DNA of 64,000 nt. It comes from a bacterium. Lineage in GTDB: Bacteria > Patescibacteriota > Minisyncoccia > UBA6257 > 02-FULL-45-10c. The notes beneath the pieces were generated by a model. It was not told the origin of the DNA and did no database searches. It was given only the letters and a program-made list of their open reading frames with translations. Both the position numbers and the translations under genes were made by a program. This document shows positions 3,341 to 63,939 of this stretch, piece by piece; the stretch's first letter is position 1; each line of letters starts with the position of its first letter. The DNA lies in contig JAUYKI010000017.1 of NCBI GenBank assembly GCA_030700025.1, forward strand, positions 2,748-66,747, read 5' to 3'.

Positions 3341-3399
3341 TTTTTTAAATTGGACATTTAGAATTTTATTAGAAATTAGATATTAGTAATTAGAAATTT

Positions 3400-4668
3400 A
3401 TGTTTAAAAAGTATGTTTTATCCAGCGGTTTAAGAGTGGTGTTGGCTCCCCAGCCGGACAATGTGGCGGCCACGGTTTTGGTATTGGTAGAGGCGGGATC
3501 AAAATACGAAACCAAAAAAATTAACGGCTTATCTCATTTTTTGGAACATTTATGTTTTAAGGGAACGGCTAAGCGGCCGACGGCGATTGCCATTGCTTCA
3601 GAATTGGAATCTTTGGGAGCGGTTTACAATGCTTTTACCGGGCACGAAGTAACCGGTTATTACGCCAAAGTCGGCGCGTCTAAAATTAATTCGGCTTTGG
3701 ATATTATCGCCGATCTTTATCAGGACCCGGTTTTTGACGAAGCGGAATTTGAAAAAGAAAAAGGAGTTATTATTGAAGAAATTAATTTATACGAAGATAC
3801 GCCGACCCGGAAAGTCCAGGAACTTTTTACGGAATTGATGTACGGCGATCAGCCGGCCGGCTGGCCCATCGGCGGTTTGAAGGAAGTAATTTTGTCGTTA
3901 AAAAAACAGGATGTTTTGAATTACCGCTCGGAGCACTACGTGGCTAAGGCTACGACCGTAGTGGTTGCTGGCGCTTTTAATGAAAAAGAAATGCTGAAAA
4001 GAATAAAAACGCTTTTTGCTAAAACTCCGGCTAACAAAAAATTCTCTAAAATCCGCACTCAAGAATCCCAGGCCCGGCCTCAAACTTTAGTGCGCTTTAA
4101 AAAATCAGACCAAACTCATTTGGTAATGGGCTTCCGGGCATTTGACCGGTACGATAAACGGCAGTACGCGCTGGAAGTTTTAGCGGATATTTTGGGCGGC
4201 GGCATGAGCTCCCGGCTTTTTCAAAGAATCAGGGCAGAATTAGGCGCGGCTTATTACGTTAAAGCCGGAACCGATTTATTTACGGATCATGGATTTTTGT
4301 CCGTATCGGCCGGAGTGGACCACCGGAAATTAAAAGAAGTTATTGAGGCAGCTTTGGGGGAGTTTAAGAAAATTTCTTCGGTTTTGGTAACTTCCAATGA
4401 GCTAGAAAAATCTAAGAATCATTTGACCGGCCAGGCGATGCTGGGTTTGGAAACCTCGGACGCCTTAGCCAGTTTTTACGGAGAACAGGAGATTTTCCAG
4501 GAAAAGATATTGAACCTTCGGGACGTTATTAAAAAAATAGAGGCCGTGACCGCTAAAGACGTTTTAAACGTTGCCCGTGAAATTATGAAGGATAAAAAGT
4601 TGAATTTGGCGCTTATCGGACCGGTCAAGAAGCTTCCGACCGGGCTGGATTTTAGTTTGGGGCGGTAG
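3400..4668 (+). CDS. M16-family zinc metallopeptidase (insulinase/pitrilysin-like)
   Basis: HxxEH inverted zinc-binding motif (HFLEHLCFKGT); 422 aa, typical M16B length and order. Confidence 0.85.
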   Translation: MFKKYVLSSGLRVVLAPQPDNVAATVLVLVEAGSKYETKKINGLSHFLEHLCFKGTAKRPTAIAIASELESLGAVYNAFTGHEVTGYYAKVGASKINSALDIIADLYQDPVFDEAEFEKEKGVIIEEINLYEDTPTRKVQELFTELMYGDQPAGWPIGGLKEVILSLKKQDVLNYRSEHYVAKATTVVVAGAFNEKEMLKRIKTLFAKTPANKKFSKIRTQESQARPQTLVRFKKSDQTHLVMGFRAFDRYDKRQYALEVLADILGGGMSSRLFQRIRAELGAAYYVKAGTDLFTDHGFLSVSAGVDHRKLKEVIEAALGEFKKISSVLVTSNELEKSKNHLTGQAMLGLETSDALASFYGEQEIFQEKILNLRDVIKKIEAVTAKDVLNVAREIMKDKKLNLALIGPVKKLPTGLDFSLGR

Positions 4669-5797: not shown

Positions 5798-5802
5798 TAT
5801 TT

Positions 5803-6092
5803 AGAACCTATCTCAATAATATTTCCTAACCGCGTTGCTAAGATAAATGCCAGATTTCAAGGCACGACGACGAAATTATGGCCATAGCCACATTGAGGAG
5901 GAGTAACGAAGAAATATGGCATTTAGACCGCAACCCAAAGGGACATAGTAAATTTTGTTCATAACTTCGTTGCTCGGGCTCGACGTAGCCAAGCTACAGT
6001 CTCGCCCCTGCCTGCCGGTAGGCAGGCTCGCGCCTTGTTCTGAATCAAAATTTACTTATATCGCGTTTGGAATTATTATTGGGATAGGTTCT
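5803..6092. repeat. Family-A palindromic intergenic element, copy 1 (~290 bp); its 3' end abuts the metG ATG
   Basis: Terminal inverted repeat AGAACCTATCTCAATAATATTTCC … GGAATTATTATTGGGATAGGTTCT. Internal conserved core GCCATAGCCACAyTGAGGAGG…AACGAAG … CTTCGTTGCTCG. Related copies at 27767-28041 and 44559-44831. Confidence 0.7.
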
Positions 6093-8470: not shown

Positions 8471-8603
8471 CTAATCTCTAAATAAACTCGAAGCTCAAAT
8501 ATCCGGATTTTTAAATTTTATTTTTGAGATTGGACATTGGAAATTGTTTAGAAATTAGGGTTTAGGAATTAGAAATTTATCAAAACATGTTATTATTAAT
8601 TCC

Positions 8604-11716: not shown

Positions 11717-11743
11717 ACCCCGATAAATGTCGGGGTTTTTAAT
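11717..11743 (+). terminator. Rho-independent terminator after the acyl-CoA ligase gene
   Basis: CCCCGAtaaatgTCGGGG followed by TTTTTAATTT. Confidence 0.7.
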
Positions 11744-11745
11744 TT

Positions 11746-11891
11746 AGAAAGAGTGTTTTATTCTCCCGCTACTGTTCAAACTCCCGGCGAGAGTTTTCAC
11801 TGGGTCTCGGGCTTCGCTCTTTCCGCCTTTGGCGGAAAACCCTGCCCGCTCAGCCCTCAGCCCGCGCTACGGAGAATAAAACACTCTTTCT
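11746..11891. repeat. Family-B palindromic element, copy 1 (~146 bp)
   Basis: Terminal inverted repeat AGAAAGAGTGTTTTATTCTC … GAGAATAAAACACTCTTTCT. The interior is the reverse complement of the copy at 36625-36809 (shared GAGCGAAGCCCGAGACCCAGTGAAAAC and GCTGAGCGGGCAGGG blocks). Confidence 0.7.
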
Positions 11892-11996
11892 AATTTTTAT
11901 GGAAATAAAAAAACCACGGCTTAACGCACCGTGGTATTGATTAGCGCCCTTGCTAATGCCCGCAAGAGTAAAGGGTTATGCCGAAACGGGCCCTGA

Positions 11997-14966: not shown

Positions 14967-15028
14967 AAGAAAAATTATCTCGTCTTCGTTGCTTTAGTAT
15001 AAAATCATCAGTTATATATGTATATATG

Positions 15029-15164
15029 CCCGGTATTACAACTTTGATCGTAAAAGTTTCAGCGAGTTATTTAAGAAAAACTATGAAATTACCTAATTTA
15101 TTAATTATAAAGTCGACAAAGCGCTTAATTTTAATTAAGCGCCAATCAAAGTTGTAATACCGGG
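15029..15164. promoter_or_regulatory. 20-bp inverted repeat enclosing a ~95-bp AT-rich segment with an inner perfect palindrome, immediately 5' of the glmS ATG
   Basis: CCCGGTATTACAACTTTGAT at 15029-15048 pairs with ATCAAAGTTGTAATACCGGG at 15145-15164. Inner palindrome AAGCGCTTAATTTTAATTAAGCGCC. The glmS ATG is at 15166. Confidence 0.45.
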
Positions 15165-15165
15165 T

Positions 15166-17028
15166 ATGTGCGGTATAGTCGGTTACATCGGAAAACAGAA
15201 AGCCGCTCCCATACTTTTGGACGGCATTAAAAGCTTGGAGTATCGCGGTTATGATTCAGCGGGAATTTCCGTGATTAATAATCAAGGAGGAGTGGCGGAG
15301 GCGCAAGTGGAAAAAGCGGTTGGCAAAGTAATTAATTTAGAAAATAAAATAAAGTCCCGGGAGCTGTTAGGCGGCCTCGGGATTATTCATACCCGCTGGG
15401 CCACTCATGGCGGAGCCACCGAGGCCAATGCTCATCCGCATAGCGATTGCGCTGGCAATATTTGGCTGGTTCACAATGGAATTATTGAGAATTATAAAGA
15501 GCTAAAAAATGAACTGATTTCCGCCGGCCATCAGTTTAAATCGGAAACTGACACGGAAGTCGTTGCTCATTTAATCGAAGAGCAAGTTAAAAGTTTAAAG
15601 TCAAAAGTTCAAAGTTATGCGTTAGAGGACGCGGTGCGGTTAGCTTTGAAAAAAGTCCGCGGAGCTTACGCGCTGGCGATTATTGATAAGCGCGAGCCGG
15701 AAAAATTAGTGGCCGTCCGGAATTCCAGCCCGCTGATTTTGGGAATCGGCAATGATGAATATCTGGTGGCTTCGGACGCTTCGGCGGTAGTAAAGCATAC
15801 CCGCAAAGTGATTTATTTTAATGACGGCGAAATGGCAATTTTAACTCCGGATAATCATCGGGTGGTTAATCTGGAAAACCAGGCAGTAGATTCTCAGCCG
15901 CAAGAATTAGATTGGACTGTGGAAAGCGCCCAGAAAGGAGGCTATCCGCATTTTATGCTGAAAGAAATTTTTGAACAGCCGGAAGCGGTAGAAAATTGTT
16001 TGCGCGGAAGATTGGTAGTTCAAGAGGGAACGGCTAAACTGGGCGGATTGGAATCCATTAAAGATAAATTGCGGGAAATAAAAAGAATTCATATTTCCGC
16101 CTGCGGTACGGCTTATTTGGCCGGAAAAGTGGGTGAATATATGCTGGAAGAATATGCCGGCATTCCGGTAGAAGTGGATTTGGCTTCCGAGCTTCGTTAT
16201 CGCAAACCCGTTTTTGATAATCATGACGCGGTGCTGGTGATTTCCCAATCCGGAGAAACGGCGGATACGCTGGCTTCGGTAAAAGAAGCCAAGGAAAAGG
16301 GAATTTTAACTTTAGGCATTGTTAATACGGTGGGATCGTCCATTGCCCGGGAAACCGAAGCCGGAATTTATCAGCATATCGGTCCGGAAATCGGCGTAGC
16401 TTCCACCAAAGCATTTACTTCGCAGGTGGCGGTGCTGGCGCTCTTAACTTTATTTTTGGGAAGGCAGCGGCAAATGTCTTTGGTAACCGGCGAGCGGATC
16501 GCGCGGGAATTGCAGAGGTTGCCGGAATTAATCCGAAAAGTTTTGCAGTCCGAAGATTTAATAAAACAAATCGCCGTCAAATATCAGACCCACAATAATT
16601 TTTTATACTTAGGCCGGAAATATAATCTGCCGATTGCTTACGAGGGAGCGTTAAAATTAAAAGAAATTTCCTATATCCACGCTGAAGGCTATGGCGCCGG
16701 AGAAATGAAGCACGGCCCGATTGCCATGATTGACCAGAATTTGCCGTCGGTAGTAATTGTTCCGTCGGACTCGGTTTATGAAAAAACTGTTTCTAATATT
16801 GAGGAAATTCGCGCCCGTCGAGGTCCGGTTATCGCCATTGCCACTGAAGGCAACGAAGATATTAAAAGTTTGGCGGACGACGTTATTTATATTCCGAAAT
16901 CTTTGGAAATGCTGACTCCGATTTTATCGGCGGTTCCGCTCCAGCTTTTTGCTTATCATGTCGGAGTTTTGCGGGGATTGGACGTAGATAAGCCCCGTAA
17001 TCTCGCTAAATCGGTTACCGTGGAATAA
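15166..17028 (+). CDS. glmS: Glutamine--fructose-6-phosphate aminotransferase (isomerising)
   Basis: N-terminal MCGIVGY with a Cys2 nucleophile; two SIS domains; C-terminal …SVTVE; 620 aa. Confidence 0.95.
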   Translation: MCGIVGYIGKQKAAPILLDGIKSLEYRGYDSAGISVINNQGGVAEAQVEKAVGKVINLENKIKSRELLGGLGIIHTRWATHGGATEANAHPHSDCAGNIWLVHNGIIENYKELKNELISAGHQFKSETDTEVVAHLIEEQVKSLKSKVQSYALEDAVRLALKKVRGAYALAIIDKREPEKLVAVRNSSPLILGIGNDEYLVASDASAVVKHTRKVIYFNDGEMAILTPDNHRVVNLENQAVDSQPQELDWTVESAQKGGYPHFMLKEIFEQPEAVENCLRGRLVVQEGTAKLGGLESIKDKLREIKRIHISACGTAYLAGKVGEYMLEEYAGIPVEVDLASELRYRKPVFDNHDAVLVISQSGETADTLASVKEAKEKGILTLGIVNTVGSSIARETEAGIYQHIGPEIGVASTKAFTSQVAVLALLTLFLGRQRQMSLVTGERIARELQRLPELIRKVLQSEDLIKQIAVKYQTHNNFLYLGRKYNLPIAYEGALKLKEISYIHAEGYGAGEMKHGPIAMIDQNLPSVVIVPSDSVYEKTVSNIEEIRARRGPVIAIATEGNEDIKSLADDVIYIPKSLEMLTPILSAVPLQLFAYHVGVLRGLDVDKPRNLAKSVTVE

Positions 17029-17630: not shown

Positions 17631-18701
17631 TTAGATGCCGAGATAATCCAAGAATTTTCCAAGTTGGGCGTTTTTGGGGCTATGGCTGGTTTTTTCGTTT
17701 GGCGGATTAATAACCATAGATCCGCGAATCAGCTGGGTGTCCAGAAAAGCATCTTTCAGTTTTTTAAAAACTCCGGTTAATTTTTTGGTTTGGGATGTAA
17801 GGAAAAAACTGCTATTAGCAGAACTCCACAAAGCATAAGTATCAAAGCCTAGCGCTTTGGCGGCGGTAAATCCTAGAGGAATTTGATTGCGTTGTTTGAG
17901 CCGTCCGGTTTTTGGATCTTGCGTAGTTTCCACGATGTTTAATAATACTTTTCCCAATTCGGCGCTTTCCGGCTTGGCTCCGCCTTCTGCCATGCGTTTT
18001 TTGGCGGCTTCAATTCCGTTTAAAGATATTTGGACCAATCCTTTATTTTGAAGGCAGATATCCCATAAATTAACCTTTTTACCGCCGGATTCTTTTACCG
18101 TGATTTGTTTGGCCTCTTCTTCGGCAAATGGCTGGCGCGGATCCCGGCCCTCCTGGAAGAATTTGGCAATTAAGCTTAGTGGCAGGGCTTTATAGATTCC
18201 ATAAGGAGTCCGCCACCAGTCATTTTTTAAAAACTCTTCGTCAATCGGATAATCTAAATTATCTATTTGGGTTACAAACTCGGAAAAATTATCCAGCCAC
18301 TTTTCCTTTTTCAGCATTCCGGCTTTAGTCAGGGATTCATAAACAATTGCGGTGGCGGAAGTGGGCTTGCCTTGTTCCGGACCGTGATGGTCAAAGAAAA
18401 TACTGCCGTCTTCTTCCATGGTTAATTCCGGCTTGCCCCCGGTATCAATATGCACCGCGCCGGCCAGGTCTTTTCCTTTTGGCACGAAAGTTACCATTTT
18501 ATAATTAATGCCCGCTAAATCCATTAAAAAGACTCCGCCCATCGCGTCTAAGTCGGGCCGGAGCTTTAATTGGCTTTTTCCGCCTTCGTGGCGGAAATCA
18601 CCGTGGATAACCAGCTGGTCAAAGCCGGCCTTCAGGGTTTCCGCTACCCGTTCTAATGTTTTTTGCTCTGATTTTTCCGGATTGGCTTTAAATTGTTCCA
18701 T
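17631..18701 (-). CDS. Hypothetical protein; weak resemblance to DHH-family phosphoesterases
   Basis: 356 aa with HID…FFDHHGP segment (DHH motif-III like); other DHH motifs are not clear. Confidence 0.5.
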   Translation of the reverse strand: MEQFKANPEKSEQKTLERVAETLKAGFDQLVIHGDFRHEGGKSQLKLRPDLDAMGGVFLMDLAGINYKMVTFVPKGKDLAGAVHIDTGGKPELTMEEDGSIFFDHHGPEQGKPTSATAIVYESLTKAGMLKKEKWLDNFSEFVTQIDNLDYPIDEEFLKNDWWRTPYGIYKALPLSLIAKFFQEGRDPRQPFAEEEAKQITVKESGGKKVNLWDICLQNKGLVQISLNGIEAAKKRMAEGGAKPESAELGKVLLNIVETTQDPKTGRLKQRNQIPLGFTAAKALGFDTYALWSSANSSFFLTSQTKKLTGVFKKLKDAFLDTQLIRGSMVINPPNEKTSHSPKNAQLGKFLDYLGI

Positions 18702-19148
18702 CCCTCACCTTTAAAGAACTGCGACGCTATCGCAATTCTTGATTTTAATTAAATGACTTTTTATTGTTGAAAACATAGTTTTGAGTATTAACTTGGCTTC
18801 GGACGCATTATTGGTTCTTTAAGGGTGAGGGATTACTTTCTTTACGATAGCTTAAAACGGCTAACTTGGAAATGGGGGAATACATGGGGTACTTGACAAA
18901 ATAAGCCCTATATATTATCATATAAACTATGGAAATAAATTCCAATCGACAATTTAATATACAAGTTAAACCTCTTGGCACCCACTATGGGATGGTTTCG
19001 GTTTTTAGCCAAGGCGGTTTTTATATTAATTGGAGAATAGAGTAATTTAAACTTCAAAAGATATTGATCTTATTTAAAGAACGCCTCGGCTAGATAAACC
19101 GAGGCGTTTTGGTTTATCTAGAAAGCACCTTGAAAAGGAGAAAAGAAA

Positions 19149-20019: not shown

Positions 20020-20068
20020 TTGGCTTGTATCGCGTTATGGGATTACTATTAGAATAGGTTCTATTATG
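20020..20068. repeat. Partial family-A element, 3' portion of ~50 nt, abutting the ATG of the downstream secreted-protein gene
   Basis: TTGGCTTGTATCGCGTTATGGGATTACTATTAGAATAGGTTCTATTATGG. Compare the copy-3 end TTGGCTAATATCGCGTTATGGGATTATTATTGGGATAGGTTCTATG. Confidence 0.55.
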
Positions 20069-24752: not shown

Positions 24753-24822
24753 TCGTAGCTCCGATGCTTCGATCGGGGCATAAGAAAATTTAAAGCTCAT
24801 TTTTCGCTAAGATTTTCTAATG

Positions 24823-24909
24823 CGGAAGCGGAAGGATTCGAACCTTCGAAGCCATTTCTGGCTTACCGCATTTCAAGTGCGGCCCATTCAACCGCTCTGG
24901 CACGCTTCC
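24823..24909 (-). tRNA. tRNA-Ser (anticodon TGA), long variable arm
   Basis: Cloverleaf with acceptor stem GGAAGCG/CGCTTCC, anticodon loop CTTGAAA, and T-loop GGTTCGAATCC. CCA is not encoded. Confidence 0.85.
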
Positions 24910-27073: not shown

Positions 27074-27147
27074 ATCCCGCTTAGAAGCAGGCCGCCCCAA
27101 GGTGGCTGTAGCCACTCGCTAAAAGCGAGGGCGGCTTCTAACGGGAT
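27074..27147. repeat. Family-C palindromic element (short copy, no downstream ATG use)
   Basis: ATCCCGCTTAGAAGC … GCTTCTAACGGGAT arms, with nested GC stems inside. Confidence 0.55.
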
Positions 27148-27280
27148 AAACAAACACTCCGCATAGCGGGGTGTTTTACTTTGGCTTGTCCTGCCTGCCC
27201 TGAGTCGTATCGAAGGGAGTTTGCTGGCAGTGAGCTTGTCGAATCTGCCGAAGGGGCTTGCGTTGAGCAAGGTCGAAGTG

Positions 27281-27766: not shown

Positions 27767-28041
27767 GGGGTCTGTCATAAAATTACTGGCTTAATTTGGA
27801 GGCCTGGATTTGAGACAGGTACGAGACGCGACGACGACAACGTGTCTGAATGAAGGACACGTTGAGGAGGAGTAACGAAGTAGCTGGCCAAAGATAGGCC
27901 TCCCCGAAGGGCCAAAGCATTTTATGGGCTGCGACTGCGTCACTCGTCGTCAATGTAGCTAAAGCTACAATCTCCTCCTCGTTTCTTGTCTCGCTCCAAA
28001 AATGCTATGGTAAATAAGTCATTAATTTTATGACAGACCCC
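27767..28041. repeat. Family-A palindromic element, copy 2
   Basis: 19-bp terminal inverted repeat GGGGTCTGTCATAAAATTA … TAATTTTATGACAGACCCC. This outer stem differs from copies 1 and 3, but the core GTTGAGGAGGAGTAACGAAG … CTCCTCCTCG is conserved. Confidence 0.65.
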
Positions 28042-28813: not shown

Positions 28814-28900
28814 GGAAGCGTGCCAGAGCGGTTGAATGGGCCGCACTCGAAATGCGGTATGCCCGAAAGGGCATCGAAGGTTCGAATCCTTCCGCTTCCG
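28814..28900 (+). tRNA. tRNA-Ser (anticodon CGA), long variable arm
   Basis: Identical to the tRNA-Ser(TGA) at 24823-24909, except for anticodon position 34 and compensatory changes in the variable arm. Confidence 0.85.
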
Positions 28901-28957
28901 CAATTTTTAAATTGAGGTTGTTTTTATTTGTTAATCGTGGTATTTATATAGAGCTTT

Positions 28958-30130
28958 TTGAAAACTGATAAAAAGGCGGTTACGATGGAACCGAAAAAGG
29001 GCTTGCGTGATGTTCCGGCCGGACAGACCCGGCTTTGCTTGTTGGATGAAGCCAACAGCGAACTTTATTATTGCGGTTATTCTATCAGGGATTTAGTTGA
29101 GCATTATCCCTATGAAGCCGTGGCTTATTTGATGCTTCACGGCGAATTGCCTTCCGAGTCGGAATTAAAAATTTTCACCCGTCGCCTGGTGAATAACGCA
29201 TGGAATATGCCTCAAGTGGTAGTTAAGAGTTTGGAGTTAAAAACTCCATTCACTGATGCCCATCCGATGGATAAATTGTCACTGATAATCCGGGCTGACG
29301 GCAATACTCACGGCATTCCGTTTTCTACGCCATCGTTAGAGAATAATTTGGACTTAGCGAAATCTTTGATTGCCCGGTTGCCTTTAATGGTTGCTTTGCT
29401 GGGCGGCGCTAGCCGGAATTATTTTGACTATTTTGATCCAGACCGCACGCTGATGGAAAATTTTGTAGATTCTTTGCGGATCCCGAACGAAGGCGGTTTG
29501 GCAACGAAATTAATGAATGTCGCGTTTATTCTTTACGCGGAACATGAATTCAACGCCGGGTCTTTCGCGGTTCGGGTGGCAGCCAGCGCGCACACCGATA
29601 TTTATTCCGCGGTTTTGGGAGGATTAGGAACTTTGCGCGGTACTCGCCACGGCGGAGCCAATGAAGAAGTAATGAAGAAGATGCTGGAAATCGGAACACC
29701 GGAAAAAACGCGCGAATATTGCGACCGATTTTTGTCTCAGCCGGGAGCGCGCTTGCCGGGATTTGGCCACGCGGTTTATACCATCGGCGATCCGCGGGTA
29801 GCGGTTCTCCGCCCGCTGGTAAAAGATTTGTCGGTCCGAAAGAACGATATGCGCTGGTATGAAATTGCTGTCGCGCTGGAAGAATATATGGCGGAGCGTT
29901 CTCGGGGAAAGTCTAAGCCCTTGCCGGCTAACACTGACCTTTGGACGGCGCCGTTATATCACTTGCTGGGCATCCCGATTCGTCTTTTCACCCCGCTTTT
30001 CGCCGCCTCCCGGGTTTCCGGCTGGTGCGGACATTATTTGGAAGTGCGGCATGTTTACAACGAACCGATTCTTCGGCCGCGCGCCGAATATGTCGGATCC
30101 GCTCCTCGGAAAGTAATCCCTCACTCTTGA
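28958..30130 (+). CDS. Citrate synthase-family protein (citrate/2-methylcitrate synthase-like)
   Basis: HGGANEEV catalytic-His block and GFGHAVY motif; 390 aa. The last 4 codons plus the stop (IPHS*) are encoded by a family-D element. Confidence 0.75.
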   Translation: MKTDKKAVTMEPKKGLRDVPAGQTRLCLLDEANSELYYCGYSIRDLVEHYPYEAVAYLMLHGELPSESELKIFTRRLVNNAWNMPQVVVKSLELKTPFTDAHPMDKLSLIIRADGNTHGIPFSTPSLENNLDLAKSLIARLPLMVALLGGASRNYFDYFDPDRTLMENFVDSLRIPNEGGLATKLMNVAFILYAEHEFNAGSFAVRVAASAHTDIYSAVLGGLGTLRGTRHGGANEEVMKKMLEIGTPEKTREYCDRFLSQPGARLPGFGHAVYTIGDPRVAVLRPLVKDLSVRKNDMRWYEIAVALEEYMAERSRGKSKPLPANTDLWTAPLYHLLGIPIRLFTPLFAASRVSGWCGHYLEVRHVYNEPILRPRAEYVGSAPRKVIPHS

Positions 30131-30191
30131 AAGAATTAACCTCGCTTATAGCGAGGTTTTTTATAGCAACGTTATTTCAAAAGTGAGGGAT
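30116..30191. repeat. Family-D palindromic element containing a terminator hairpin
   Basis: ATCCCTCACTCTTGAAA … TTTCAAAAGTGAGGGAT arms. Inner hairpin AACCTCGCTTATAGCGAGGTT followed by TTTTAT. Confidence 0.65.
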
Positions 30192-30269
30192 TTATTTTGA
30201 AGTTGATTTTTATGGAATTTAGCATTAAACTATTCTCGTTCTTTAATAACGAGGTATGGAGGATGAAAC

Positions 30270-31586
30270 ATGTTGACTACTAAAAATCTGCTGAATCACT
30301 TAGTAAATTTTTCTCATGACCTCAAATACAAAGATCTGCCGCCGGAAGTTGTCCACGAAGCTAAGCGGCGCTTAATTGATTCTATGGCCTGCGCGATAGC
30401 TGGCTCGCATGATCCGGCCACGCTTTTACTTGCTAAAAACTCTTGCGAATCCATGGAAGAGAAAGCCTTCAGATTTACGCATTTAATCCGCGTACTGGAT
30501 TGGAACGATACCTATCTTTCCAAAGAGCCGGCTCATCCTTCTGATAATATCGGCGCCCTGCTCGCGCTTTGTAACTATGGCATTTCCGGAGAAGATTTTA
30601 TTACCGCCATGGTGCTGGCTTATGAAATCCAGTGCCGGTTCTGCGACGCGGCTTCGCTCCGTAAAAATGGCTGGGACCACGTTGCTTACGTTTCGTTAGC
30701 CACTGCGTTTGCCACGGCAAAAATCCTGAAACTCAACCGCGAAAAAATGACCCATGCCGCTTCGCTGGCTCTCCGCTGGATTCCGCTTCGCCAAGTGCGC
30801 GCCGGATCGGACCTTTCAATGTCAAAGGGGCTTTCGGCGGCAGAAGCGGTAAAATTCGGCGTTCATTCAGCTCAATTAGCTAATTGCGGAATTACCGGCC
30901 CAAGCGAAATGATGGAAGGACAATTTGGATTTATTAATCAAGCAACCGGCGAGCTGGATTTTTCCGCCTTTACTTCACTCGGTTCGGAATTCAAAATTCT
31001 GAAAACCCACATTAAACTTTATCCGGTGGAATACCATGCCCAAGCCGCAGTGGATGTGGCTCTGCAAATCCGAAAAACACTAAATGGACGAGTGGAGAAC
31101 ATTACTCGCCTTGACCTTGAATCCTATGAAGCATGCCGAGCCATTATTGCCGACAAAAACAAACGCCGGCCAGCCACTAAAGAATCTGCTGACCATTCCC
31201 TGTTTTATATCATGGCAGTTACTCTTTTAGACGGAGAAATGACCTTGAAGCAATACGCACCCGAAAGATACAATGATCCGGCAGTACTTCAGCTGATTGA
31301 TAAAATGAGCGACGTTCAAGAAACGCCAAAATTTAATGAAGCTTATCTCAATCGAGAAAAACCCGCTTTTCCGCTTCGTTGCAAAGTTATTGGCTACCCC
31401 ATTCCATATACGGTAGAGGTTGAATTTCCCAAGGGCCACTTTGCAAATCCTTTAACCGACGATGAATTAGTTGAAAAGTTTAAGGCCCTAACTAGCCAAG
31501 ATATAAATCCAGTTTCATTAAAATCGGGCCTGGAATATCTTTGGCACTTGGAAGACGAACCGCGCCTCGCTCCTGTAAAATTTTAA
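30270..31586 (+). CDS. MmgE/PrpD-family protein (2-methylcitrate dehydratase-like)
   Basis: 438 aa; MmgE/PrpD N- and C-domain layout. Confidence 0.8.
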   Translation: MLTTKNLLNHLVNFSHDLKYKDLPPEVVHEAKRRLIDSMACAIAGSHDPATLLLAKNSCESMEEKAFRFTHLIRVLDWNDTYLSKEPAHPSDNIGALLALCNYGISGEDFITAMVLAYEIQCRFCDAASLRKNGWDHVAYVSLATAFATAKILKLNREKMTHAASLALRWIPLRQVRAGSDLSMSKGLSAAEAVKFGVHSAQLANCGITGPSEMMEGQFGFINQATGELDFSAFTSLGSEFKILKTHIKLYPVEYHAQAAVDVALQIRKTLNGRVENITRLDLESYEACRAIIADKNKRRPATKESADHSLFYIMAVTLLDGEMTLKQYAPERYNDPAVLQLIDKMSDVQETPKFNEAYLNREKPAFPLRCKVIGYPIPYTVEVEFPKGHFANPLTDDELVEKFKALTSQDINPVSLKSGLEYLWHLEDEPRLAPVKF

Positions 31587-33060: not shown

Positions 33061-34599
33061 ATGGGACCGGAAGAAGCAGATCAGTTAGTTCAGAAATATT
33101 TTAAGCGAAAGGGATTGCCGTTAATGCCAGCAGTTACCTTTGATGATGTTTTAGTTCGGGAAGGAATTTCCAGCATTGCTAGCCGGAGCGACATTACTAA
33201 TTTAAAGGCTCAGCTGGCAAAAGATTTTTGGCTGAATATTCCGGTAGTGTCCGCTAATATGGACACGGTTACGGATTCGCGTATGGCAATTGCTTTGGCT
33301 CGGCTGGGCGGTATGGGTTTCATCCATCAGTTCGTTTCGCTGGAAGACCGGCTGGAAGAAGTCAGCAAGGTTAAGCGGGCGGACAATATGGTGATTGAAA
33401 ATCCGGCGACCATTCGTCCGGAAGCAACTTGGGCGGAAGCGCAAGCGGTAATGGCGGAACGGGAAATTTCCTGTTTGCTGGTTACTGACGCGCAAGGAAT
33501 TTTGGCCGGCATCTTAACGTCGCGCGATACTCAATTTTGTTCCGACCCCAACGCTTTAGTTGGAGATTTAATGACTCCGAAAACCAGAGACGGACACTTT
33601 GTTTTGCAAACTGCCCGTCCGGATATTTCCAATGAAGACGCGGAAAAAATGTTAAAGCGTTCCAAGGTAGAAAAACTTCCTTTAATAGATGATGAGGGCA
33701 AGGTGGTTGGATTGATTACGGCGAAAGATATTTTAAAGCGCCGGATGTTTCCCAACGCGGCCCGGGACGAAAAGGGCCAGCTGTTAGTTGGCGCTACTTT
33801 GCGGTTCAGCGGAAATTATTTGGAAGAAGCGAAAGCGTTGATCGACGCCGGAGCGGATGTATTGCTGTTAGATACGGCGCGAGCCAGTTCTTCATCAGAG
33901 GACGGAATTTTGGCGTCGCAGTATTTAACGCCCGGGAAAATTGTGGAATTAGCCGCGGAAAGAACCGCGAAAATTAAATACGTGTTTCCAAAAATAGTTT
34001 TAGTGGTTGGTAATACTGCCAATCCGGAAGCGGTGGCGCTTCTGGCAAGCCGTGGAGCGGATTGCGTTAAAATCGGAATTGGGCCGGGAGCGGGATGTAA
34101 GACTCAGGAAGTAGCCGGAATCGGTTCGCCTCAGCTTCACGCGATCGCGCAATGCGCGGCGGTGGCCAGAGAAATCGGAGTTTGTTTAATGGCTGACGGC
34201 GGAATTAGAAATGGCGGTTGCATGGTTAAAGCGCTAGTTGGCGGAGCAAATGTGGTGATGCTGGGAAGTTTGCTGGCGGGAACCGACAAATCTCCGGGCC
34301 TGCTGGTTTGGAATCGAAAGGAAAATAAACTGGTTAAGAAATACCGCGGTTCGGCATCCACTGAACATCAGCTGGATAGGATTAAAGTTGGGGATTTGCA
34401 CGCGGTTAGAACGTCAGAGGGCGAAGCCGGAGCGGTTCCTTACATGGGCACGACGGTTTCGCTGATTGATGATCTGCTTGGCGGATTGCGGTCGGGCATG
34501 AGTTATGTCGGCGCCCATAACCTAGAAGAGCTTTGGCAGTTCGGCAGATTTGTTTGGAGAACGCAGGCCGGAATTGAAGAAGGAAGACCCCGAATATAA
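33061..34599 (+). CDS. guaB: IMP dehydrogenase (TIM barrel with CBS pair)
   Basis: Catalytic-loop motifs GIGPGAGCKTQ and GGIRNGG; tandem CBS insert; 512 aa. Confidence 0.9.
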   Translation: MGPEEADQLVQKYFKRKGLPLMPAVTFDDVLVREGISSIASRSDITNLKAQLAKDFWLNIPVVSANMDTVTDSRMAIALARLGGMGFIHQFVSLEDRLEEVSKVKRADNMVIENPATIRPEATWAEAQAVMAEREISCLLVTDAQGILAGILTSRDTQFCSDPNALVGDLMTPKTRDGHFVLQTARPDISNEDAEKMLKRSKVEKLPLIDDEGKVVGLITAKDILKRRMFPNAARDEKGQLLVGATLRFSGNYLEEAKALIDAGADVLLLDTARASSSSEDGILASQYLTPGKIVELAAERTAKIKYVFPKIVLVVGNTANPEAVALLASRGADCVKIGIGPGAGCKTQEVAGIGSPQLHAIAQCAAVAREIGVCLMADGGIRNGGCMVKALVGGANVVMLGSLLAGTDKSPGLLVWNRKENKLVKKYRGSASTEHQLDRIKVGDLHAVRTSEGEAGAVPYMGTTVSLIDDLLGGLRSGMSYVGAHNLEELWQFGRFVWRTQAGIEEGRPRI

Positions 34600-34711
34600 A
34601 TTTCTAATTACTAATTTCTAATTACTAATGACTAAGTTCAAAATTCAAATCCCGCAATTGCGGGATTTTTTATTTGAAAATACTTCAAAATTGATTTAAT
34701 ATATTTTCAAC

Positions 34712-36566: not shown

Positions 36567-36624
36567 AAATTTTCGCCTCGGCTTTTTGCCGGGGCTTTTT
36601 ATTTCTACGAAAGCAGTTTTTGAG

Positions 36625-36809
36625 AAAAGAAACTTTATTCTCCGTAGCGCGGGCTGAGCCTGCCTGCCGGTAGGCAGGGGCTGAGCGGGCAGGGTGTCCC
36701 GCGAAGCGGGACGAGCGAAGCCCGAGACCCAGTGAAAACTTCCCTCACTCTTGTACAAAAGTGAGGGACTGGGAGTTTGAACGGTAGCGGGAGAATAAAG
36801 TTTCTTTTC
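36625..36809. repeat. Family-B palindromic element, copy 2 (~185 bp); its right end overlaps the comFC stop codon
   Basis: GAAAAGAAACTTTATTCTC … GAGAATAAAGTTTCTTTTC arms. The internal hairpins differ from copy 1 but stay complementary. It also carries the CCCTCACTCTTG…CAAAAGTGAGGG hairpin and the GCCTGCCGGTAGGCAGG hairpin also present in family-A copy 1. Confidence 0.7.
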
Positions 36810-37543
36810 TAGCGTGTTTTAGCAATTACCAACGCGATTATTTTTTTGGCGCCGGCGGATTTTAAAGTTTTAGCGGCTTCGCGGATAGTGGCTCCGGAAG
36901 TGTGAACGTCGTCAACGAGAAGGATATTTTTTCCCACTATCAGTTCTGGGTAATTAACCGCGAAGCAGTTAATCACATTTTGCGCCCGTTCTTCATGATT
37001 CTTGGCAAGCGACTGGGTTTTAGTATTTTTAATTCTTTGAATCGGCTCCGTTAAATCTAATTTATAAAAATCAGCAACAATTTTCGCAATCAATTTTGCC
37101 TGATTAAATCCGCGTTCTTTTTCCCGATCTTCGTGAAGCGGGATTGGAACCACGGTAAAATTTCTAATATCTAAATCCAAATTTCTAAGATACGAGACTA
37201 GAATTTCGCCTAATGGCCTTTGAAGCCGCTGCCATTTTTTAAATTTAAATAATTTCAGCAAAGTCCGGATGGAATCGTTATCGTAATTAGTGGCGGCGGC
37301 CAAAAGATAAGGAGAATCTTTATGGCAGACCTTTTTATTATCCGCCAGGCGCAATCCGCAAACCGGGCAAAAAAGCGAAGTATTGAGGCGGATGCCGGCC
37401 CAGCACTCCGGGCAAAGATCGCCTTCAGCGTTTTTTTGGCAGTTTAAGCAGAGCGGAGGAAAGAGGATGTCCCACAGCCAGGTTTTCATTTTTTGGAGAT
37501 AGCTCATGTCTGTTATACTAATAATAGATTTAGAATAAGGCAA
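36809..37543 (-). CDS. comFC: ComF-family competence protein (double zinc ribbon plus phosphoribosyltransferase fold)
   Basis: N-terminal CLNCQ…CPECW…CPVCG zinc fingers; C-terminal PRTase motif VLLVDDVHTSGAT. Confidence 0.8.
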   Translation of the reverse strand: MPYSKSIISITDMSYLQKMKTWLWDILFPPLCLNCQKNAEGDLCPECWAGIRLNTSLFCPVCGLRLADNKKVCHKDSPYLLAAATNYDNDSIRTLLKLFKFKKWQRLQRPLGEILVSYLRNLDLDIRNFTVVPIPLHEDREKERGFNQAKLIAKIVADFYKLDLTEPIQRIKNTKTQSLAKNHEERAQNVINCFAVNYPELIVGKNILLVDDVHTSGATIREAAKTLKSAGAKKIIALVIAKTR

Positions 37544-37750
37544 TGGATTCCAATAACTAATTTCTAATATCTAATTTCTAATAAAATGACCGAAATCACA
37601 AACCACAAGCACCAAATCACAAACAAGCACCAATGACCAAAATCATAAATTTAAAACCCGTTTGGAATTTCTATTATTTGAATTTAGAATTTGTTTGTAA
37701 TTTGAGATTTGTAATTTGGAATTTTATCAGAAATTGTAAATTGTAAATTT

Positions 37751-39373: not shown

Positions 39374-39381
39374 GATGAATC

Positions 39382-39504
39382 CCACACATAACAAAGACTA
39401 TAGGATATTTAAGCTAATAACTATGATAGTAGAATTAAAATGTCACATTAAATTAAAAGGCAAGGATTTGCGGAAAACTTCGCAGTCTTTGTTATGTGTG
39501 GGAT
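39382..39504. repeat. Palindromic element exactly filling the pilN-pilO-like spacer (19-bp perfect arms)
   Basis: CCCACACATAACAAAGACT … AGTCTTTGTTATGTGTGGG. The right arm overlaps the start region of the downstream gene. Confidence 0.6.
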
Positions 39505-40396: not shown

Positions 40397-40520
40397 GGAT
40401 CCCGTTAGAGATAGGCCGTCAAAGGCGGCCGTAGCTCGTCCGTTCTAATGGCGCTCAGAGTTTAAAATAAAAACAAAGGTTAATAATATAAATCTAATTT
40501 AGTTATCTCTAACGGGATGG
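40397..40520. repeat. Family-C palindromic element; the right arm contains the pilB ATG
   Basis: GGATCCCGTTAGAG … CTCTAACGGGATGG; the pilB ATG is at 40517. Confidence 0.65.
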
Positions 40521-44558: not shown

Positions 44559-44831
44559 GAACCTATCCCAATAATAATCCTCAAACGCGTTGCTAGTATA
44601 AATTGAAAATTTCTAGGCCTGCCGAGGAGCTTGTGGCCATAGCCACAGTGAGGAGGCAGAACAACGAAATTTTCAATTTAGACAGCAACCCCAAGAGGGA
44701 TACAGCCAATTTTATCCATAACGTCGTTGCTCGTCGAAGATATAGCTTACGCTATAAATCTTCTCCTCGCGTCTAGTTCTGAATAAAATTGGCTAATATC
44801 GCGTTATGGGATTATTATTGGGATAGGTTCT
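44559..44831. repeat. Family-A palindromic element, copy 3; begins 2 nt after the pilC stop
   Basis: GAACCTATCCCAATAATAATCC … GGATTATTATTGGGATAGGTTC arms; core GCCATAGCCACAGTGAGGAGG … CTTCTCCTCG. Confidence 0.7.
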
Positions 44832-44932
44832 ATGTTACACTTATTAAAGGTCGGAAATAAGATGTAATACCAATATACGAATTATTCGTATCATTAGTAT
44901 GAATTAGTATATTAGTATCTCATTATAAATAT

Positions 44933-57093: not shown

Positions 57094-57162
57094 AGTTTAT
57101 TCCCCCTAGACTGCGGTCAGGGGGAATTTTTATTAGGATAGGTTCTTGGTATAATTTAAGTA

Positions 57163-57610: not shown

Positions 57611-59665
<2,055 letters not shown>

Positions 59666-60800: not shown

Positions 60801-60925
60801 GTAATGAGATACTAATATACTAATATACTAATTCATGCGAATGATACTAATAAAATGCGAATATAAAAGCATTAGTATGCTATTCGTATCATTAGTACCA
60901 TTTGTATATTAGTATCATATTTTTA
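60800..60925. repeat. Palindromic array of TACTAAT/TCGTATCATTAGTA heptamer-type repeats between gatC and gatA
   Basis: The left half (AATGAGATACTAATATACTAATATACTAATTCAT) is the reverse complement of the right half. The same motif occurs upstream of pilA at 44870-44932. Confidence 0.6.
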
Positions 60926-62373
60926 TGCATTTACATGACTTAACTATAAAAAAATTCCACGAAGGTTTGGTGAATAAAGAATTTTCCGCGCATGAAATGG
61001 CGCAGGAAGTTTTTGATTTAATTAAAGCGGAGGATGGAAAAATTCACGCGTATTTAAGTTTGAATGAGCGAATGGCGTTACGGCAAGCGGAAGAAGCCGA
61101 TTTAAAAATTGCCAAAAATGAGCCGGTGGGTTTTTTAACCGGCGCGCTTATGGCGATTAAAGATAATATTTTAATTGAGGGACTGCCGTGCACTTCGGCC
61201 TCTAAAATTTTAGAAAATTATACTGCCAGCTATGACGCAACGGTGATTAAGAAATTAAAATCCAGCGGCGCCGTATTTTTAGGTAAAACTAATATGGATG
61301 AATTCGCCATGGGTTCGTCTACGGAAAATTCCGCATTTGGGCCAACCAAGAATCCCCATGATTTGACTAGAGTTCCGGGGGGATCGTCCGGCGGTTCAGC
61401 AGCGGCAGTGGCCAGTCATATGGCTGTGGCGGCGCTGGGTTCGGACACCGGCGGTTCTATCCGCCAGCCTGCGGCCTTTTGCGGAGTTGTCGGCCTAAAG
61501 CCTACCTATGGCGCGGTTTCCCGTTATGGAGTGACGGCGATGGCTTCCAGCTTGGATCAGATCGGACCCTTTACGAAAACCGTGGAAGACGCGGCGATTT
61601 TATTTAATGAAATAAAAGGAGTGGATGCCATGGATTCCACAAGTTCGCCACAAGCTAGCGAGATTAAAGAAGAAGATTTATTAAAACCCAAGCTGGAAGA
61701 TATTCGAAAATTGCGGATAGGCATTCCGAAAGAATATTTCGTGGAAGGGCTTTCCGCGGAAATTGGCAGCGCCGTAGAAAAAGCCATTCAAGATATTAAA
61801 AGCTTGAAAGTAGAAATCAAAGAAATCAGCCTGCCTCACACGAAATACGCGCTTTCTTGTTATTATATTATTATGCCGGCGGAAGTGAGTTCCAACCTGG
61901 AACGATTTGAGGGGATTCGCTATGGCAGCCGCCAATCGGCGGAAAAATTGATAGATTTATATAAGAAAAATCGGGAAGCCGGATTCGGAGATGAATCCAA
62001 GCGCAGAATTTTATTAGGAACTTTCGTTCTGTCTTCCGGCTACTATGACGCTTATTATGCCAAGGCTCAAAAAGTCAGGCGATTAATTGCCCAAGACTTT
62101 GACCAGGTATTTAAGGAAGTAGATTTGGTGCTGACGCCGGTTACGCCGACTCTGCCGTTTAAGTTCGGAGAAAAAACCGATAATCCATTGGAAATGTATC
62201 TTTCCGACGCGTTTACTATTCCGGTGAACTTAGCCGGTTTGCCGGCGATGTCTTTGCCGGTTAATCAAACTAAAAAAGATAAATTGCCAGTCGGCTTTCA
62301 GCTGATTGGCCGGCATTTTAAAGAGGCGGATATTTTAGGATTAGGGCAGTATTACGAAAAATTATCCCGTTAG
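60925..62373 (+). CDS. gatA: Glu/Asp-tRNA amidotransferase subunit A (amidase signature family)
   Basis: Amidase signature GGSSGGSAAAVA…GSDTGGSIRQPA; 482 aa. The TAG stop lies inside the left arm of a family-C element. Confidence 0.95.
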   Translation: MHLHDLTIKKFHEGLVNKEFSAHEMAQEVFDLIKAEDGKIHAYLSLNERMALRQAEEADLKIAKNEPVGFLTGALMAIKDNILIEGLPCTSASKILENYTASYDATVIKKLKSSGAVFLGKTNMDEFAMGSSTENSAFGPTKNPHDLTRVPGGSSGGSAAAVASHMAVAALGSDTGGSIRQPAAFCGVVGLKPTYGAVSRYGVTAMASSLDQIGPFTKTVEDAAILFNEIKGVDAMDSTSSPQASEIKEEDLLKPKLEDIRKLRIGIPKEYFVEGLSAEIGSAVEKAIQDIKSLKVEIKEISLPHTKYALSCYYIIMPAEVSSNLERFEGIRYGSRQSAEKLIDLYKKNREAGFGDESKRRILLGTFVLSSGYYDAYYAKAQKVRRLIAQDFDQVFKEVDLVLTPVTPTLPFKFGEKTDNPLEMYLSDAFTIPVNLAGLPAMSLPVNQTKKDKLPVGFQLIGRHFKEADILGLGQYYEKLSR

Positions 62374-62485
62374 AAGCCGCGATCGCTTTAATTAATAATA
62401 TTATTTCCATTTATTATGCATGGTCGTTATTATAAAAATATATTACGTAGAATCGCTTTGATCGCGATCTGCTTCTAACGGGATG
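62364..62485. repeat. Family-C palindromic element spanning from the gatA stop codon to the ATG of the next gene
   Basis: ATCCCGTTAGAAGCCGCGATCGC … GATCGCGATCTGCTTCTAACGGGATGG. The TAG at 62371-62373 is the gatA stop; the ATG at 62483 is the downstream start. Confidence 0.7.
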
Positions 62486-63121
62486 GCAAAACCACCAGAA
62501 ACAAGCCCTCCTCCTTCCGGATTAGATTTTATAATCTTAATTTTTCTTTTCATGGCGATCTTGCCTATGATCGGAGGATTTTTGGTTTATTTAGGCGATC
62601 CGAGCGGCTTACTGACCCGGATAAAAGAATTTTTGGCTCCCTACCTGCTTAATAATTTATGGTGGATGAAAATTGTATCGGTTTTAATATCCGGATTATT
62701 CGTCTGGGGAATAGCCCATATTTTATCTAAATTGAATTACGTGAATCTGCGAACCGAACAATTTTTAAATATTTTGGGCAGTTCGGGATTAAGTCGGCGC
62801 CGGTCTTTGCGCGCCTGGAGGCAGATTCAAGCGAGATTGGCGGTTGAAGATCCCCAGCAATGGAAAATAGCTATTTTAGAAGCGGATGAGATTTTAAACG
62901 AAGTTCTAAAATTATCGGGTTATTTGGGAAAAATGGAGGATAAGCTGGATTTAATTACTCCAGCGCAGTTGGCCAGCATTGAAGACATTAAAATAGCGCA
63001 TCGGATTCGTAATCAGATTTCCGGCAGCCCGGCCTTTGAATTATCGCGGGAAGTCGCCGAAAGAACCGCTCATATTTACAGAAGGGCGTTTGTGGAAACG
63101 AATTTAATCCCTCACTCTTGA
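62483..63121 (+). CDS. Membrane protein of unknown function (2 TM helices)
   Basis: 212 aa. The start codon is donated by the family-C right arm, and the C-terminal …IPHS* is encoded by a family-D left arm. Confidence 0.5.
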   Translation: MAKPPETSPPPSGLDFIILIFLFMAILPMIGGFLVYLGDPSGLLTRIKEFLAPYLLNNLWWMKIVSVLISGLFVWGIAHILSKLNYVNLRTEQFLNILGSSGLSRRRSLRAWRQIQARLAVEDPQQWKIAILEADEILNEVLKLSGYLGKMEDKLDLITPAQLASIEDIKIAHRIRNQISGSPAFELSREVAERTAHIYRRAFVETNLIPHS

Positions 63122-63245
63122 AGCGCTGCGATTTCTGAACGCTTGTTGTAATATACTGTTTTTTATCCCCCAGACTTTATTTACGGATATTTAATGCCCC
63201 ATAGAGAAATCAACTAGGCGTTTCGGCGCTTCAAAAGTGAGGGAT
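63107..63245. repeat. Family-D palindromic element (~140 bp)
   Basis: ATCCCTCACTCTTGAAGCGC … GCGCTTCAAAAGTGAGGGAT arms. Confidence 0.65.
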
Positions 63246-63279
63246 AAAAAACTCCGCAATCAGCAGAGTTAGTTGTTAT

Positions 63280-63765
63280 TTATTTCTTGGTTACGGCGAT
63301 CCGAATTTCATTAATAATTAGATAGGTCATAGCGCCGATAAGGCCGGTTAGAAGCCCCTGGCCCAGCTGATTGATGTAAGGATTGCGTTCGCTGCCGGTA
63401 TTGTTTCTGTGAGTCAGCAGGTAGCTTTGGAGCACGCCCTTTTTATTAAAGGTTAATTCCAAATTATAAGTTATAGTATTCTCGGTTTTTTCGGAATAAG
63501 TAAAGCGGCTTTTGGACTTTATGATGCTTCGGGAGAATTTATAGACCCATTTTTCGGAATCTTTATTGGCATGGATTTCAGGATTGCCGGCGATGATTTT
63601 TCGGAGTTCTGGCTGGGCCGGCCGGCCGATATTTTTATCCAAGAGAGCCGTGAGTTCGTTTAATTGGTTTTCGGGATAAAATTGGGCGCCGGAAGTTTTT
63701 ACCGATGCGCAGCTGGACTGGAGAATTAGCAAGAAACTAAGCAGGAGGCGGACGGGATATTTCAC
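63280..63765 (-). CDS. Secreted (possibly lipo-)protein of unknown function
   Basis: MKYPVRLLLSFLLILQSSC signal peptide with a lipobox-like Cys; 161 aa. Confidence 0.5.
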   Translation of the reverse strand: MKYPVRLLLSFLLILQSSCASVKTSGAQFYPENQLNELTALLDKNIGRPAQPELRKIIAGNPEIHANKDSEKWVYKFSRSIIKSKSRFTYSEKTENTITYNLELTFNKKGVLQSYLLTHRNNTGSERNPYINQLGQGLLTGLIGAMTYLIINEIRIAVTKK

Positions 63766-63862
63766 GGCTATCTCCTTTGTCTTTTAAGGTACGAGAGTAT
63801 TATCGTTGATTTTCCGCCGTTGTCAATGTATTATGGATTAGGATTTGAGTATCAAGGCCAAT

Positions 63863-63939
63863 GCGGTGGTAGCTTAGCTGGCTAAAGCGCCTCCCTGTCA
63901 CGGAGGAGATCGCGGGTTCGAGTCCCGTCCACCGCGCCA
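63863..63939 (+). tRNA. tRNA-Asp (anticodon GTC), CCA encoded
   Basis: Acceptor stem GCGGTGG/CCACCGC; anticodon loop CTGTCAC; T-arm CGCGGGTTCGAGTCCCGTC; 3' GCCA. Followed by terminator AAATTGCTGCttcgGCAGCAATTT at 63944-63975. Confidence 0.9.

Follow-up and report, generated by a model that had tools for sequence, protein, structure and literature searches.

Two unrelated genes lying on the plus strand of a 64,000-nucleotide stretch of contig JAUYKI010000017.1, which belongs to a Patescibacteria-like metagenome-assembled genome (MAG) and is called the window in the following, end in the same four residues, raising the question of how they came to share a C-terminus. The first is a citrate/2-methylcitrate synthase family gene (28958 to 30130, 390 amino acids; PF00285 at 1e-99, TIGR01800-like), whose product ends in PRKVIPHS. 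The second encodes a conserved membrane protein (62483 to 63121, 212 amino acids) with N-terminal hydrophobic segments and no Pfam family, which ends in NLIPHS. A sequence-only reading of this stretch had described a common IPHS-stop in one frame, and indeed the final 15 nt of both open reading frames (ORFs), comprising the last four codons and the stop (30116 to 30130 and 63107 to 63121), are read as atc-cct-cac-tct-tga and fall within the left arm of an inverted repeat, here named family D. The closest named homologues come from MAGs of the Patescibacteria or candidate phyla radiation (CPR). [quoted passage not shown]

The 15-mer ATCCCTCACTCTTGA has exact plus-strand matches at 30116 to 30130 and 63107 to 63121, and the inverted partner that had been reported downstream of each left arm is present as ATCCCTCACTTTTGA on the minus strand, at 30177 to 30191 and 63231 to 63245. 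With up to two mismatches, ATCCCTCACTCTTGA matches the window six times, against 0.08 matches expected from shuffles. The arms of copy 1 (30116 to 30191, 76 nt, plus strand; arms 30116 to 30131 and 30176 to 30191) and copy 2 (63107 to 63245, 139 nt, plus strand; arms 63107 to 63122 and 63230 to 63245) are identical over 16 nt (ATCCCTCACTCTTGAA and TTCAAAAGTGAGGGAT). They run on as imperfect inverted repeats of 20 to 26 nt, arms of 16 to 22 nt being 85 to 92% complementary, and the predicted RNA folds reach -36.7 kcal/mol for copy 1 (z = -7.3 against shuffled controls) and -49.1 kcal/mol for copy 2 (z = -6.7).

In the conserved stem foot of family D, (A)TCCCTCACTCTTG(AA) pairs with (TT)CAAAAGTGAGGGA(T), the arm motif being TCCCTCACTYTTG in its search form, and every family-D stem (3/3 window copies) carries a C.A mismatch at arm position 11. 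Beyond the foot, the stem of every copy extends by 1 to 6 bp, and further with bulges, into copy-specific complementary sequence, and the distal stem and loop are different in each copy. What copies 1 and 2 have in common is the stem foot alone; their interiors show no relationship to each other (z < 2), and each interior is unique in the window.

A third occurrence, which the sequence-only reading had noticed as nested in another repeat, is a minimal family-D hairpin of 30 nt (TTCCCTCACTCTTGtaCAAAAGTGAGGGAC; 36740 to 36769, plus strand) inside copy 2 of a repeat named family B. It is missing from the other family-B copy (11757 to 11826), representing a clean 30-nt gain. The family-B repeat itself is found at 11741 to 11896 and 36623 to 36810 and is about 156 to 188 nt long, with terminal inverted repeats of 21 to 26 nt (GGAGAATAAA...). 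A diverged fourth copy, named D-prime, lies at 18700 to 18833 with the arms ATCCCTCACCTTTAAAGAAC and GTTCTTTAAGGGTGAGGGAT, and its left end (...ccAT) is the ATG, on the minus strand, of the gene at 17631 to 18701. Family D is an imperfect palindrome with a conserved mismatch, occurring in sizes of 30, 76, 134, and 139 nt without an ORF of its own, with three to four copies in the 64 kb of the window, two of which overlap the ends of coding sequences.

One of the two alternatives offered by the sequence-only reading was that an element inserted into the 3' ends of both genes and replaced their native termini, and the alignment with orthologues points to such a replacement at the junction in both proteins. 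All nine membrane-protein orthologues (44 to 86% identity) end in NLI[S/R/K/P]E(E), and in this orthologue set the NLIPHS ending is limited to the window protein and its 99 to 100% identical twin. A 3-kb contig from a second sample (L004) is 100% identical to window positions 60886 to 63891, copy 2 included. In the locus L003, which has about 82% nucleotide identity, the sequences flanking a gap align with the window on either side, and the gap corresponds to a 134-nt insert in the window. Its empty site reads AATTTAAT/TAGCGA/ATAAAAAAC; with longer flanks, ...GAAACTAATTTAAT/TAGCGA/ATAAAAAACTCCGC... in L003 corresponds to ...GAAACGAATTTAAT/CCCTCAC...134 nt...GTGAGGG/ATAAAAAACTCCGC... in the window. 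The roughly 100-nt interior of copy 2 has no counterpart in L003, and the convergent downstream gene is 28 nt away in L003 versus 158 nt in the window. Because the L003 flanks align around the empty site, copy 2 is, by this comparison, a gain in the window lineage, where the native codons S-E-stop were lost.

For the synthase, the nearest relative (P0001 on L001, 91% amino acid identity) ends in PRKISVL followed by the stop, the next relative (68%) and distant ones end in PRPFPSLEEREEAEQ or PRPYVPIEKR-like sequences, and IPHS is found in none of them. A prpD-like gene overlaps the synthase stop in the 68% relative, and the 139-nt spacer following the window synthase is therefore itself derived. 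Judged from these alignments, the IPHS terminus is non-native in both proteins. In the window, the synthase gene adjoins an MmgE/PrpD-family gene (28958 to 31586 for the two together); both are uncommon central-metabolism genes for a Patescibacteria-like group, and neither reaches its NCBIfam equivalog cut-off.

In distant citrate synthases, [FYV]-[IV]-P is often found close to the end, for example in PRPFIPIHQRE, and the V-I-P of the window protein could therefore look native. However, a chance or convergent origin, in which both proteins natively end in IPHS, would have to account for 16 identical nucleotides with matching inverted partners at both loci where 0.08 matches are expected; IPHS ends no orthologue of either protein, and for the membrane protein this explanation is refuted by the L003 empty site. 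We regard it as almost certainly wrong.

The shared frame can be traced to the arm, because only one arm phase (phase 0) holds the stop codon at this place. Translating the arm in three phases gives IPHS, IPHF, IPHL, or IPHP, each followed by a stop, for phase 0 of the D and D-prime arms (4/4), with four residues added, while the other two phases add 5 to 28 residues. Since only phase 0 yields a protein of near-native length, selection on the survivors would favor it.

The second alternative of the sequence-only reading, a selected gene-end module that provides a stop and a terminator, is not supported. In its favor, copy 1 does enclose a canonical terminator-like hairpin (30138 to 30164, plus strand), with a 9-bp stem at 30138 to 30158 followed by TTTTTT, and one metagenome locus described below (L126) also has a terminator-like hairpin between its D arms. 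Moreover, 4/4 D and D-prime arms keep a stop at codon 5 despite the difference between TGA and TAA, and the three copies beside a gene 3' end (3/3) share their orientation relative to the gene. The stop codon is placed inside a stem of 17 to 22 bp. E. coli REPs are described to protect mRNA 3' ends or to stall ribosomes near the stop, and by analogy the long stems of family D could conceivably act as such 3'-end protectors or cause stalling.

However, the interiors are unrelated, and no plus-strand terminator was found inside copy 2. There, a native bidirectional terminator-like hairpin (63250 to 63270), conserved in L003, is located beyond the element; A6 follows the outer D stem of copy 2, and a stem with a U-tract is seen for the inner hairpin of copy 1 only. 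The terminator of copy 1 is unique in the window and aligns with a terminator of L001 that is unique among all fetched loci (window 30136 to 30164 with L001:2312-2344; local score 28, rising to 42 with the preceding 21 nt), and it is therefore probably the gene's own. In L001, the sequence just upstream of the terminator agrees with the left arm at 15 of 21 positions, and a right arm is absent; the L001 locus may represent a decayed old D insertion, or the arms may have arisen around a native terminator. The other copies lie outside a gene-end context, their locations being the inside of a repeat, the 5' end of a gene, or intergenic DNA between divergent genes, and close relatives function without the element. 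A portable stop-plus-terminator cassette is thus not supported as the common ground of both copies, and it seems quite improbable that the element is kept for the stop and terminator or the 3'-end stabilizing hairpin that it gives to the upstream gene. On the explanation that we prefer, a dispersed repeat gained at gene boundaries, the identical C-terminus is a side effect, tolerated by the cell, of a repeat that is itself selfish or neutral, and no gene-end cassette has been selected for.

When metagenome contigs were scanned with a pattern of both arms, 12 loci were obtained. Six of these are ordinary perfect terminators, with an A-run before and a T-run after the hairpin, which share sequence with family D by chance. 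Five distinct loci (L124, L126, L128, L130 = L132, and L133; 35 to 57% GC) have the 12+12-nt core CCCTCACTCTTG...CAAAAGTGAGGG, and all five carry the C.A mismatch of the window copies (T.G on the other strand). The L128 hairpin directly abuts the TAA stop of a 411-amino-acid ORF (gTAA/TCCCTCAC) in the same orientation as in the window fusions, and the remaining metagenome copies lie in divergent or unassigned intergenic DNA. Family D was not found in a scan of viral contigs, and a search with the 15-mer pattern across 596 Gb of contigs, for which the pattern is too short, gave single chance matches only. Rfam scans with gathering and E-value thresholds detected tRNAs only, with no family covering family D or the sister elements described below. 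An origin of the arm from a tRNA 3' end (AAT-CCCTC-ACTCTTG-A as T-arm plus acceptor) was rejected, as no tRNA in the window matches. A literature search found no paper on such repeats in Patescibacteria or CPR, and the motif strings matched only unrelated primer sequences.

The conservation of the core and the C.A mismatch across divergent genomes could also indicate a functional RNA or DNA hairpin whose mismatched stem foot is recognized by a protein of the host or of a mobile element, for example a site processed by an RNase III-type enzyme, a device for translational coupling, or a site to which a regulator binds, the overlap with gene ends being incidental. The compensatory copy-specific stem extensions and the sister elements placed exactly between stop and start codons would fit such a function. 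Yet no Rfam family matches, the element is dispensable in close relatives, and its contexts are mixed (gene 3' end, gene 5' end, and the inside of another repeat), and we consider a functional hairpin of this kind very improbable.

If family D is indeed a dispersed repeat, its copies would have been gained at new sites in a very compact genome, where gene boundaries would be nearly the sole tolerated landing places. The insertion, or a small adjacent deletion, would then bring an ORF end and the arm together in the stop-bearing phase, such that the ORF would lose its own final codons and stop and end in I-P-H-S-stop, and junctions in the other two phases would be removed by selection. For copy 2, two such two-step paths of insertion and deletion can be proposed. 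The element may have inserted at the native stop (TAAA) with a TNNA duplication, which the right junction GGGA/TAAA AAAC fits, followed by a 12-nt deletion between AAT microhomologies on the left. Alternatively, it may have inserted at TTAA inside the final codons, with a 12-nt remnant on the right being lost later. The gatA junction, which belongs to one of the sister elements described below, would likewise need a two-step path with a 7-nt loss on the left.

Several observations weigh against this explanation. A target-site duplication (TSD) is detectable, as matching 4-nt flanks, in 0 of 8 family-D copies, and the single clean empty site shows 6 to 8 nt of the target missing instead of duplicated, and therefore a simple cut-and-paste or copy-and-paste event would not be the full description. 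A MITE derived from one master copy would typically have a conserved interior, whereas the interiors here differ from copy to copy. For copy 1, a single contiguous insertion appears strained, given that its terminator looks orthologous to that of L001, where the right arm is lacking. The gene-end fusions number only two, and two fusions would agree in phase one time in three even if selection played no part. Furthermore, a scan of part of the window ORFs revealed no transposase or autonomous partner; a Pfam scan of ten small or unassigned window ORFs found no transposase and no Y1_Tnp, and no insertion sequence (IS) with TCCC...GGGA ends was found in the window or the fetched loci.

Some of these features would also be expected if the arms were not part of one insertion and the palindromes had been built in place around local sequence, by template switching or gene conversion between hairpins. 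Such an origin could explain why the interarm terminator of copy 1 aligns with the terminator of a relative, why a TSD is absent in 8/8 family-D copies, and why the stem goes on into copy-specific sequence in each copy; a perfect 10-bp palindrome with the same core within conserved ligA coding sequence points in the same direction. But copy 2 is a clean 134-nt indel whose interior of about 100 nt has no counterpart in L003, the nested copy adds a clean 30 nt to another repeat, the sister families show classical TSDs, and the identical 12+12-nt core with its mismatch across genomes of 35 to 57% GC argues for the spread of one sequence. Building in place is hence unlikely, and the gain of a dispersed repeat remains our preferred explanation.

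The ligA palindrome, which the sequence-only reading had listed as a related in-frame hairpin at 58124 to 58146, does exist but is located at 58133 to 58154 (plus strand), where it has a 10+2+10 structure (CCCTCACGAC-TG-GTCGTGAGGG) and encodes PSRLVVRG. The segment IPSRLVVRG aligns without gaps to IPARLEVRG of the E. coli LigA protein (IPARLEVRGEVF), a segment that we take to be motif III of the adenylation domain. The alignment thus identifies the palindrome as part of the native, essential coding sequence rather than an insertion of family D, and it shares with family D only the 7-nt core CCCTCAC. This heptamer occurs 13 times in the window where 3.6 occurrences are expected, with 10 of the 13 in hairpin pairs, and a chance origin of the perfect 10-bp palindrome in ligA is therefore unlikely. 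Separately, ligA contains heptamer tandem repeats (AAATTAG-type, and AAAAATC three times) in frame at 58100 to 58132 and 59221 to 59246, coinciding with insertions of 4 and 14 amino acids relative to E. coli LigA. Intergenic arrays of these heptamers are found at 3358 to 3401, 8537 to 8580, 34588 to 34649, and 37548 to 37587.

Family D is part of a wider set of hairpins. The window holds at least eight hairpin elements of 75 to 139 nt that start with (A)TCCC, end with GGGA(T), and lie at gene boundaries. Besides D-prime and family-D copies 1 and 2, these are sister elements at 1851 to 1959 (TSD TGGA), 27074 to 27148 (TSD TAAA), 39379 to 39504, 40399 to 40518, and 62364 to 62484, and a truncated copy is found at the window start (37 to 70). 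GGGA followed by TG falls exactly on the start of a gene in six elements (gene starts 69, 1958, 18701 on the minus strand, 39503, 40517, and 62483). The stem feet of the sisters are TCCCGTTAGA and TCCCACACAT, their interiors are unique, and they fill whole intergenic spacers.

Relatives again provide empty sites. The 96%-identical relative L136 has neither the element at 39379 nor that at 40399. At the first site, the empty sequence AAAATAAAATGAAAGC compares with the filled sequence ...GATGAA/TCCC...GGGA/TGAAAGC, with the flanking duplication ATGAA, and at the second site, TTTTAGAAAATGGATGCT compares with ...AATGGA/TCCC...GGGA/TGGATGCT, with the flanking duplication ATGGAT; with the ends defined as TCCC...GGGA, both duplications count as 4 bp. 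In total, 8 copies of the sister families have 4-bp TNNA duplications, among them, outside the window, two L124 copies (TCAA), L144 (TGAA), and L139 (TGCA). Because the element ends in A, an insertion into A/TGNA rebuilds the start codon. The sister families thus behave like classical MITEs, and an IS200/IS605-type mechanism without duplication was rejected for them on account of the clear duplications.

The element at 62364 to 62484, absent from L003, touches genes at both ends: its left arm (62364 to 62376) gives gatA the end ...KLSR-stop (TTA TCC CGT TAG), and its right arm gives the membrane-protein gene its ATG. In L003 (1050 to 1075), gatA ends in ...KL-stop and overlaps the ATG of the next gene as CTATAATGG, with no spacer. 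With the KLSR ending of gatA, the window has another kind of gene end that stems from a repeat. Translational coupling through a bridging ORF was considered and fails for the elements at 1851 and 40399; only the element at 39379 to 39504 has a bridging upstream ORF, of 42 codons, ending in ATGA.

Outside the window, the TCCCGTTAGA...TCTAACGGGA hairpin occurs in L139, a relative with 55% identity, and in L124 and L128, these being divergent CPR-like contigs, often with GGGA+TG at a gene start. The TCCCGTTAGA family is also present in six IMG/VR phage contigs (L141 to L146; 35 to 61% GC), between structural genes (SU10 adaptor, Mu F-like). An interpretation of TCCCGTTAGA...TCTAACGGGA as an integron attC site was rejected, the order being reversed on both strands (GTTAGA ... 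TCTAAC, compared to 5'-RYYYAAC ... GTTRRRY-3'), and the integron core motifs are absent from family D. Family D and its sisters have in common the TCCC/GGGA ends, the habitat, and their co-occurrence in the window, L124, and L128, but not the duplication.

A possible, still tentative interpretation is that family D and the sisters (feet TCCCGTTAGA, TCCCACACAT, and TCCCTCACC) form an undescribed hairpin superfamily of Patescibacteria-like bacteria and phages of 35 to 61% GC, which would integrate at TNNA exactly on start and stop codons and rebuild the ATG. In such a superfamily only the mismatched foot would be conserved, each copy would have a distal hairpin of its own, the elements would start with T and end with A, and stops within the arms would cap the upstream ORF. 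If true, self-healing boundary insertions would be a distinct mobile-element strategy for genomes with almost no intergenic DNA, and the elements might also be co-opted as operon spacers.

How does family D relate to known repeats? The REP and REPIN sequences of E. coli and Pseudomonas are imperfect palindromes of about 30 to 40 nt with a conserved mismatch, which lie just downstream of stops without a TSD, occur singly or as hairpin-forming pairs with variable spacers, and can stabilize the upstream mRNA. In family D, by contrast, the GTAG foot was not found, the foot being (G/T)TAATCCC, and no RAYT (Y1/HUH) was found among the small ORFs scanned; furthermore, a single D arm is not itself palindromic, and D copies enter coding sequence. 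The mycobacterial MIRUs are intergenic operon repeats whose ends overlap the upstream stop and the downstream start. The sister element at 62364 to 62484, providing the gatA stop and the ATG of the next gene, resembles them in this respect, whereas MIRUs are direct tandem repeats with small ORFs and not hairpins.

Many copies of the QMITE1 and QMITE2 elements of Coxiella burnetii overlap the 3' ends of functional genes by 1 to 50 bp, supplying residues or stops (Wachter et al. 2018, PMC5896051). Like family D, they are small, non-coding inverted repeats with very stable predicted hairpins, nested in or beside other repeats (PMC5896051). The QMITEs differ in having a conserved internal sequence and being defined genome-wide, whereas in family D only the foot of 12 to 16 nt is conserved, the interiors are unique, and no TSD is seen; the host is Coxiella in the one case and a Patescibacteria-like MAG in the other. 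In-frame fusions of MITEs and Rickettsia palindromic elements (RPEs) and the terminator-like SPRITE element have been reviewed (PMC10969869). RPEs are similar to family D in being palindromic repeats placed in frame in unrelated genes with a shared peptide (PMC10969869), but they are about 100 to 150 bp long, internal, and encode 30 to 50 residues without a stop. Family D adds four residues and a stop, truncating or replacing the C-terminus, and thus does not form the uninterrupted ORF with an internal peptide that characterizes RPEs. The Correia elements of Neisseria and the SPRITEs of S. pneumoniae are likewise boundary hairpin repeats, which can act as or mimic terminators and nest mutually (PMC10969869). 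Correia elements, however, have a TA duplication and a conserved interior, and the SPRITE is itself terminator-like, whereas the D arms of copy 2 lack a U-tract and the copy 1 terminator seems native.

Compared to MITEs in general, family D shows the terminal inverted repeats, the small and non-coding nature, and the presence/absence polymorphism (L003 and family-B copy 1), whereas neither a TSD nor a shared interior from a parent IS was seen in the window and the fetched loci. Family D is a new and well-supported family, and the gene-end fusion itself is an already documented phenomenon, which will not surprise a specialist. In this uncultured bacterium with its ultra-compact genome, small palindromic repeats have altered the C-termini of proteins and, in the sister families, the starts of genes. 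A case from the Patescibacteria/CPR thus joins those described chiefly from Rickettsia, Coxiella, Neisseria, and enterobacteria. Shared terminal peptides may derive from repeats, which calls for caution in annotation and orthology assignment. Of greater interest is the wider set of TCCC...GGGA hairpins, given how precisely they are placed on start codons, the conservation of their stem foot, and their occurrence in phage contigs.

The window is also dense in other small repeats, in addition to the heptamer arrays. An inverted-repeat element at 15026 to 15167 has 23-nt arms (ATGCCCGGTATTACAACTTTGAT and ATCAAAGTTGTAATACCGGGTAT) that are 96 nt apart, and the AT at the end of its right arm belongs to the start codon ATG of a GlmS-like gene (MCGIVGY...) at 15166. 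A repeat of about 275 to 290 nt with terminal inverted repeats of 33 to 38 nt (TAGAACCTATCCCAATAATAATCC...) is found at 5802 to 6092 and 44559 to 44832, with fragments at 20038 to 20062, 27858 to 27880, and 57122 to 57146. It is also present at L003:2299-2353, the end of the relative's contig, and is therefore shared between species. Finally, two tRNA-Ser genes at 24822 to 24909 and 28814 to 28901 (anticodons TGA and CGA) are inverted with respect to each other, are 94% complementary over 89 nt, and bracket 3.9 kb.

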